5,920 bases of DNA from a virus (IMGVR_UViG_2690316285_000006); one strand, 5' to 3'; counted from the stretch's first letter, positions 1 through 5,465 are shown. The notes: a model not told the origin generated them from the sequence alone. Numbers and translations are program-made.

Positions 1-5465
<5,465 letters not shown>

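Follow-up and report, generated by a model that had tools for sequence, protein, structure and literature searches.

A candidate nested scaffold-capsid gene within the protease-capsid fusion gene of a lambda-like prophage

In bacteriophage lambda, the scaffold protein Nu3 is read from within the protease gene C, and the nested, in-frame and co-terminal character of this arrangement has been proven experimentally. Herpesvirus UL26/UL26.5 and phage Mu I/Z each produce a minor full-length protease-scaffold protein along with an abundant co-terminal scaffold protein in the same frame. The short form of the herpesviruses is expressed from its own promoter and transcript. In phage HK97, two neighboring genes encode the protease and the capsid protein individually, and recruitment of the protease is non-covalent.

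Many prophages and cultured phages have fused protease-capsid genes, which are annotated and discussed as single propeptides. This fused architecture is already known: Pseudomonas phage MD8 gp5, Murka gp5 and Arthrobacter clusters AM, AU and AN have been described as having a protease, a scaffold and a capsid protein joined in one gene or 'single propeptide', and the MD8 protease was reported to be lambda-C-like, i.e., a member of a different family (PMC8508860, PMC10892653, PMC5513430). In these three papers the gene is handled as one product and an internal start is unmentioned. The literature that we searched on such fusions likewise describes no internal start, and an earlier remark in the HK97 literature is possible.

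The window analyzed here (the whole stretch of viral DNA, 5920 bp, G+C content of 38.8%) is, by its gene content, the head module of a lambda-like enterobacterial prophage (Table 1). Its fourth gene is an uninterrupted ORF of 614 codons. Identical or nearly identical proteins are on record in E. coli and Shigella, and proteins of Kosakonia, Enterobacter and others share 75-95% identity with this product. Nucleotide searches of sequenced phages and complete E. coli genomes found no close relative, and matched only the end of an IS element and a diverged terminase. At its right end (5863-5920), the window aligns with the end of an IS2-like (IS3 family) element present in >1000 E. coli genomes, and a phage gene whose ATG is at 5805 is apparently interrupted by this element. 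Because the element lies just downstream and a gene seems to be interrupted, this prophage copy may be defective.

Table 1. Features of the window, with positions counted from its first nucleotide
Feature	Position	Strand	Remarks
Large terminase, gpA-type	46-1623		Head module, first gene
Head-tail joining protein, 176 aa	1635-2165		Second in order
Portal, lambda-family	2165-3673		Third in order
Protease-linker-scaffold-capsid fusion ORF, 614 aa, 67.4 kDa	3621-5465	+	Fourth in order; Pfam and PHROG matches
HK97-type prohead serine protease domain, residues 16-146	3666-4058	+	Beta-rich, confident AlphaFold domain; Pfam S78
Presumed catalytic pair, His69 and Ser115	3825-3827; 3963-3965	+	Invariance in homologues
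Predicted disordered acidic linker, residues 147-220	4059-4280	+	pLDDT and composition; holds the proposed internal start
Internal Shine-Dalgarno AAGAGGG, core GAGG at 4143-4146	4141-4147	+	Aligned spacing of 5 nt
Proposed internal start ATG, Met178	4152-4154	+	SD, open mRNA, homologues
Back-up in-frame ATG, Met180	4158-4160	+	Sole ATG at the site in, e.g., L005 and L009
Proposed nested scaffold-capsid gene, 437 aa, 47.7 kDa	4152-5465	+	Conserved SD, ATG and unstructured mRNA; same C-terminus as the full-length product
Helical scaffold-like (delta-domain-like) segment, residues 222-327	4284-4601	+	AlphaFold helices; two conserved motifs
Candidate nested start, TAAGGAA (4511-4517) and ATG 4527 (Met303)	4511-4529	+	Weaker; would give a capsid protein of 312 aa and 33.4 kDa that has a short propeptide
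Predicted mature HK97-fold capsid protein, residues ~347-614, ~28.7 kDa	4659-5462	+	Alignment to 8GTA
Head-tail attachment protein, FII-like	5479-5802		Last in order

The predicted parts of the fusion product are, from the N-terminus, an S78 protease, a disordered linker rich in acidic residues, a scaffold-like helical region and a capsid protein of the HK97 fold. Both ends of the protein are recognized by Pfam, with PF04586 (Peptidase_S78) at residues 61-153 (38.8 bits; cut-off 21) and PF05065 (Phage_capsid) at residues 350-608 (64.9 bits; cut-off 24.2). The 'head maturation protease' family phrog_80 is also matched (E=7.6e-19). A single PHROG, phrog_617, covers both halves of the protein (profile positions 5-167 and 331-620 of 626), and phrog_4523, 'major head and protease protein', is a second match of fused architecture; an unbroken ORF with an N-terminal protease and a C-terminal capsid protein is the arrangement that these two families represent. 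The same domain order within one ORF is found in the MD8, Murka and Arthrobacter fusions. His69 and Ser115 are invariant in 47 homologues, and, as judged from their spacing, these residues may be the counterparts of the catalytic residues of HK97 gp4.

An AlphaFold model of the 614-aa protein was built on 47 homologues. The protease is modeled as a confident domain whose last strand ends at residue 143, and pLDDT is <50 throughout the linker. Asp and Glu make up 28% of the linker, which is hypervariable in both sequence and length in the alignment of homologues. The helices that follow match no Pfam family, and the sole PHROG match in this segment is weak and to a family of unknown function. 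A second stretch of low confidence (residues 323-357) precedes a confident HK97 fold at residues 358-611. Foldseek placed PDB 8GTA, the capsid of phage R4C, among its top matches (E=7e-16; TM-score 0.69, target-normalised) together with HK97 (E about 1e-13). In a profile search 8GTA was matched with E=2.6e-23, and residues 2-261 of its chain align with residues 354-610 of the query.

The R4C structure provides an indirect indication of how such a protein may be processed. R4C is a Dinoroseobacter phage (L101; MK882925.1, 1423-3312) and the 8GTA chain comprises 268 residues, which correspond to residues 362-629 of the 629-aa product. The chain is thus the C-terminal part only, an indication that the virion shell lacks the regions of the protease and scaffold. 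The paper on the structure makes no mention of protease, scaffold or cleavage (8GTA). By alignment, the mature capsid protein encoded in the window would begin near residue 347.

The locus shares with HK97 gp4/gp5 both its protease family (PF04586) and its capsid fold (PF05065). HK97 gp5, whose N-terminal scaffold-like domain is fused to the capsid protein and cleaved off by the protease, is the counterpart of the nested product proposed below. The two systems differ in the length of the scaffold segment, which at about 170 residues is greater in the window, and in the disordered acidic linker that comes before this segment. They also differ in how the protease is attached. The protease-capsid ORF is unbroken in 99 of 99 related loci (see below), and because no stop codon separates the two parts, some molecules carry the protease covalently, unlike in HK97.

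A potential second start is located within the linker. A reading made from the sequence only had proposed that the motif AAGAGGG, followed four nucleotides later by an in-frame ATG, initiates a nested scaffold-capsid gene. These elements can be read straight from the DNA: the spacer is TCAA (4148-4151), and the distance from the full-length start, (4152-3621)/3 = 177, makes the ATG codon Met178. With the core GAGG paired to the anti-SD, the aligned spacing to the ATG is near optimal. We calculate an energy of -6.3 kcal/mol for the duplex of AAGAGGG with the 3' end of 16S rRNA, and neighboring gene starts in the window range from -6.0 to -7.7. The product that would begin with MDMDNPENE has a computed size (Table 1) that agrees with the ∼437 aa and ∼48 kDa estimated in that reading. 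Its placement of the start at the boundary between protease and acidic region holds in so far as Met178 is inside the acidic linker, but the position is not exactly at the boundary, since it falls ∼30 residues beyond the protease fold.

Taken by itself, the motif in this one sequence is not significant. Among the ATGs of the window, 4.5% have an SD of this quality, and the ORF has ∼12 in-frame internal ATGs, so that one chance match somewhere in the ORF would be expected in ∼40% of cases. Two local features of the mRNA and codons accompany the motif. The 60-nt mRNA window centered on 4152 is less structured than 92% of the windows in the ORF. In addition, Glu175, which forms part of the SD, is encoded by GAG, a codon used for only 4 of the 61 Glu residues in the ORF (AAG is used for 4 of its 29 Lys residues). 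It is conservation among homologues that makes the motif significant.

One rival explanation is that only a single polyprotein is made. Every subunit would then be synthesized as the 614-aa precursor and bring its own protease, which would afterwards trim off itself and the scaffold, and the SD-like motif and Met178 would be by-products of a linker rich in Glu, Gly and Lys, or a fading relic of gene fusion. The chance frequency just given is compatible with this view, as is the fact that the junction ATG is missing in a few homologues (the Serratia locus L028 and proteins P0021 and P0056). Each version makes a prediction that can be compared with the homologues. Signals due to composition would be expected elsewhere in the same linkers, and a relic would have decayed.

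Viral contigs and a set of bacterial genomes, with each species represented once, were the source of related loci sharing as little as ∼23% identity. The 99 loci obtained come from Alpha-, Beta- and Gammaproteobacteria, Verrucomicrobiota, MAGs labelled Chlamydiaceae, Synergistaceae and Caldisericales, and others, and they were reduced to 54 non-redundant lineages sharing <60% identity. A junction window was defined as the region 12-75 codons past the motif E[IV]SLVxxPAD. These limits were set after a first look at the data, and the control-window and structure-profile tests described below are independent of their fine tuning. Since the linker cannot be aligned across the 54 sequences, scanning their alignment column by column for conserved starts gave no information, and the window-based and control-window tests were used instead.

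Nearly all of the 99 loci have an in-frame ATG 17-66 codons past E[IV]SLVxxPAD...VGVGR, usually after a clear SD such as AAGGAGG (L058), GAGGGGGAG (L047), AAAGGAG (L041) or GGAGG (L076). After reduction to lineages, an in-frame ATG is present in the junction window in 52 of 54. The other two (L094 and L098) have no junction ATG, and in these a GTG is positioned behind AAGGAG instead. With the E. coli anti-SD used for all taxa, the best junction SD has a median energy of -6.25 kcal/mol, whereas the median of the 617 remaining in-frame ATGs is -1.7 (P=8e-17). Junction SDs are as strong as those of candidate full-length starts and stronger than those of a crude set of downstream gene starts. The sequence-only reading had suggested asking, as a check on its proposal, whether homologous fusion genes conserve the SD and ATG, and the proposal strongly passes this check, with an ATG in almost every lineage and an SD of gene-start strength.

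The composition of the linker fails to account for this pattern. When the same linkers were scored at 3363 non-ATG codons, again with the E. coli anti-SD throughout, the median was -1.8 (P=9e-16 against the junction ATGs). An SD of -6 or better precedes 59% of junction ATGs versus 9% of the non-ATG positions. Moreover, the best SD-ATG combination of the entire ORF is located in the junction window in 32 of 54 lineages versus 7 expected, and the junction window tops all control windows of equal size in 31 of 54 (binomial P=6e-28). The latter test retains significance when all junction ATGs are used rather than the best only (P=4e-11). From these comparisons, the start signals are conserved beyond what coding constraints explain.

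Weak SDs at the junction are the only ones found in the Acinetobacter loci L045, L055 and L099. The loci that have the ATG without an SD are almost all from Verrucomicrobiota, and the neighboring gene starts there also are without an SD. Seven Verrucomicrobiota loci (L061, L063, L066, L072, L079, L089 and L093) keep the junction ATG with no SD. For five of these (L061, L063, L066, L079 and L093), candidate full-length starts and downstream starts were checked, and these too mostly lack an SD. This suggests that the Verrucomicrobiota hosts of these loci use SD-independent initiation. The absence of an SD at the junction is then as expected, because an initiation signal would follow host usage.

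Genuine start sites lie in weakly structured mRNA. To compare loci, the folding energy of 60-nt windows was expressed as a z-score within each ORF. The score peaks at +1.97 exactly on the junction ATG and returns to ∼0 within 45-60 nt on either side, and the z-score at the junction ATG is positive in 49 of 52 lineages (P=6e-10). The linker upstream of this ATG has z-scores of -0.2 to -0.5. Because this upstream linker is not unstructured, the peak at the ATG is not a composition effect, which argues further against by-products of a Glu/Gly/Lys-rich linker. Deep conservation of the SD, the ATG and the open mRNA is thus observed at the same position.

Codon usage in the enterobacterial clade leads in the same direction. 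Met178, or a Met one or two residues away, is present in 35 of 37 enterobacterial homologues despite the variable linker that surrounds it. The peptide that precedes this Met differs widely (QEGQ, QKDQF, QEDKS, NKDQS, QKEEL, QEREL, QEGEL, TEERL, EEERL and QKDMI). Despite these residue changes, diverged enteric DNA always carries (A/G)AGGA, GAGG or AAGGTG at an aligned spacing of ∼5 nt. These SD motifs require G-ending Glu and Lys codons or the rare codon AGG, which is used in L022. In this clade the z-score is +1.0 to +1.8 at Met178 and +0.5 to +1.9 at the annotated start, and is mostly negative at Met residues within the capsid domain.

These observations are difficult to reconcile with a relic. 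The fusion spans several phyla at ∼25% identity, yet the signal persists in a hypervariable segment, and the SD is maintained with rare codons through amino acid changes. For these reasons we regard production of a single polyprotein only, whether its linker signals are by-products of composition or a fading relic, as unlikely. The nested in-frame gene proposed to start at Met178 gains support from each of its conserved features, namely the SD, the ATG, the open mRNA and the rare codons.

An internal SD-like motif also could act as a translational pause that lets the protease fold, rather than as a start. The generality of SD-induced pausing is disputed. The motif is situated ∼30 codons past the protease fold, and we infer that this is about when the domain would have left the ribosome tunnel. 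However, neither an in-frame ATG 5-9 nt downstream nor a minimum of mRNA structure is required for a pause, and both are conserved. The Verrucomicrobiota loci, which keep the ATG without an SD, fit initiation signals that follow host usage. We therefore consider a pause to be very improbable as the function of this motif.

Two other signals in the ORF were considered and rejected. The best SD-like score of the entire ORF, -8.3, is that of GGGGTAGG upstream of Met157 (ATG 4089). Met157 was rejected as a start because its codon varies in relatives (ATG, TTA, TTG, CTC, ATT and CTT); the G-rich motif before it encodes the conserved residues VGVGR. An internal promoter of the herpesvirus style also was sought. 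The ORF has 6 promoter-like sites versus 5.2 expected, and none is located just upstream of 4152. The window thus differs from the herpesvirus case, since its promoter-like sites do not exceed the chance level.

A second candidate start at Met303 calls for closer attention. Met303 is invariant in 47 aligned homologues, and the TAAGGAA that precedes it is conserved in enteric sequences. All 16 diverged enteric sequences encode Lys298 as AAG, in contrast to five other columns of conserved Lys, in which the codon is nearly always AAA. The sequence AAGGA is kept where the residues differ (IKDDE-M in L024), and the motif is present in L028, which is without a junction Met. These data could be explained if Met303 is the important internal start of the enterobacterial clade, giving a 33-kDa capsid protein, and Met178 is minor or unused. 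Several findings oppose this explanation. The SD is poorly spaced in the window, with a long aligned spacing of ∼8 nt, and the structure z-score of the window is only +0.2, that of relatives +0.1 to +1.6, as compared with the values for Met178 given above. No SD-ATG combination was seen at this position outside the enteric clade, for example in R4C or VP882. Furthermore, DKEIK-M is conserved as protein, so that part of the signal may reflect protein constraint, and the junction signal found throughout the family would be left unexplained. A clade in which Met303 takes the place of Met178 is thus quite improbable.

The two starts are not mutually exclusive, and Met178 and Met303 may both be used. 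That the Met303 start is used at all is a possibility to which we give somewhat less than even odds. Also tentative is a 'Russian doll' arrangement in enteric phages with starts at Met1, Met178 and Met303, coupled with internal initiation as a general property of protease-capsid fusions including those of VP882, phiHAP-1 and R4C; we consider this broader picture less likely than not. If true, protease-scaffold-capsid, scaffold-capsid and capsid-only proteins would be produced from one frame, and one gene would set the stoichiometry of protease, scaffold and coat, a job that lambda divides among C, Nu3 and E.

The junction start also can be recognized in cultured phages. Its Met and SD are Met185 and AGAGGTG (-7.1 kcal/mol) in VP882, Met189 and GGAGG (-9.5 kcal/mol) in R4C, Met152 and GAGGA in phiHAP-1, Met216 and GAGGA in E. 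coli phage ep3, and Met180 and TAAGGA in DCP80. The site is the top internal SD-ATG combination in four of these five phages and ranks second in ep3. Structure z-scores for all five are +1.9 to +2.8. Murka, a Xanthomonas phage, and the FoX phages encode proteins with detectable homology to the window protein, and in Murka the junction ATG lies in very open RNA with a weak SD. The closest phage homologue of the window protein is that of DCP80 (L107; PQ671644.1, 580-2580), with 31% identity. The DCP80 record is of a 141-kb T-even-like phage (Straboviridae), a family in which a lambda-type fusion is unexpected, and it may be a chimeric assembly.

The sequence-only reading further held that internal initiation would let the phage set a high ratio of capsid to protease. 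This part of the proposal is not supported by the data. Family-wide, the internal SD does not exceed the best candidate SD of the full-length start in strength (medians of -6.3 and -6.45, respectively), and the idea that the full-length start is the weaker of the two was rejected on these grounds. An excess of the short form therefore cannot be established from the sequence by itself. In the window itself, the full-length start is preceded by AAGGAA, which is poorly spaced and located within the portal ORF. Both features may lower use of the full-length start, but this is only suggestive.

The overlap of the fusion ORF with the portal ORF is 53 nt (3621-3673). A similar overlap of 44 nt is annotated in VP882, and R4C has the usual 4-nt overlap, ATGA. 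A further motif occurs 18 nt past the full-length start, where Lys7 and Arg8 (3639-3644) are encoded by the rare codons AAG and AGG to yield AAGAGGGAA, and no start codon follows it. All 16 enteric homologues use AAG for Lys7, and AGG codons number 1-2 per ORF among those examined.

The best interpretation of these results is that the ORF is a 'three-in-one' head-assembly gene that is read from two in-frame starts, a reading to which we assign a probability of roughly 0.78. The ATG at 4152, or that at 4158, is probably a functional start, as judged from its conservation. Ribosomes that start at ATG 3621 would produce the 67.4-kDa protease-linker-scaffold-capsid protein, and those directed by the internal SD to 4152 or 4158 would produce the protease-free scaffold-capsid protein. 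The shorter protein would correspond to HK97 gp5, delta domain included, and would serve as the main building block. Because the scaffold-capsid part is common to both proteins, the long and short forms could co-assemble into one procapsid shell, with full-length molecules bringing the protease inside as a covalent passenger. The protease would then cut off everything upstream of residue ∼347 to leave a capsid protein of ∼29 kDa. Within this model we infer initiation at 4152, co-assembly of the two products and an excess of the short form.

The model resembles lambda C/Nu3 in two respects. Both loci have a head protease gene downstream of a lambda-type portal and a gpA terminase, and in both an in-frame start after the protease part gives (in the window, would give) an extra assembly protein that is free of protease. 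There also are clear differences. The lambda protease is not of the S78 family, the nested Nu3 is scaffold only, and capsid protein E has a separate gene, whereas the nested product predicted from the sequence of the window comprises scaffold and capsid protein. Only PF04586 is matched by the N-terminal part of the window protein in Pfam and PHROG, with no lambda-C-type family. The comparison with C/Nu3 that was made initially is therefore apt as an analogy of mechanism, given the in-frame start with an SD after the protease, but not as homology, because the protease is S78 and not of the lambda gpC type. The capsid protein also lies outside the nested product in UL26/UL26.5 and Mu I/Z. A nested product that includes the capsid protein is thus distinct from the lambda, Mu and herpesvirus cases.

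An internal start would remove a difficulty in the assembly of such phages. With one protease per capsid subunit, the procapsid must hold several hundred protease domains. If two starts are used, a full-length minority would deliver the protease through co-assembly and the bulk subunit would be an HK97-like scaffold-capsid protein, and protease targeting would be explained without a separate docking signal. A missing gene product then would be added to the annotation of fusion genes in phages and prophages, and the logic of lambda C/Nu3 would have arisen, or been kept, in an unrelated protease family. A design rule for nanocontainer capsids also would follow, in which the short form is combined with a trace of the long form. 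We expect these implications to be useful for annotation and of moderate interest to specialists in phage assembly.

Two minor features of the window concern other ORFs. Antisense ORFs at 4066-4245 and 4148-4471 oppose the acidic coding sequence, and these are assumed to be artefacts of its repetitive nature as read on the other strand. The 176-aa ORF at 1635-2165 occupies the place of the 68-aa gpW of lambda. Its N-terminal half has no family match, and its C-terminal half alone matches a head-tail joining family (phrog_5774).
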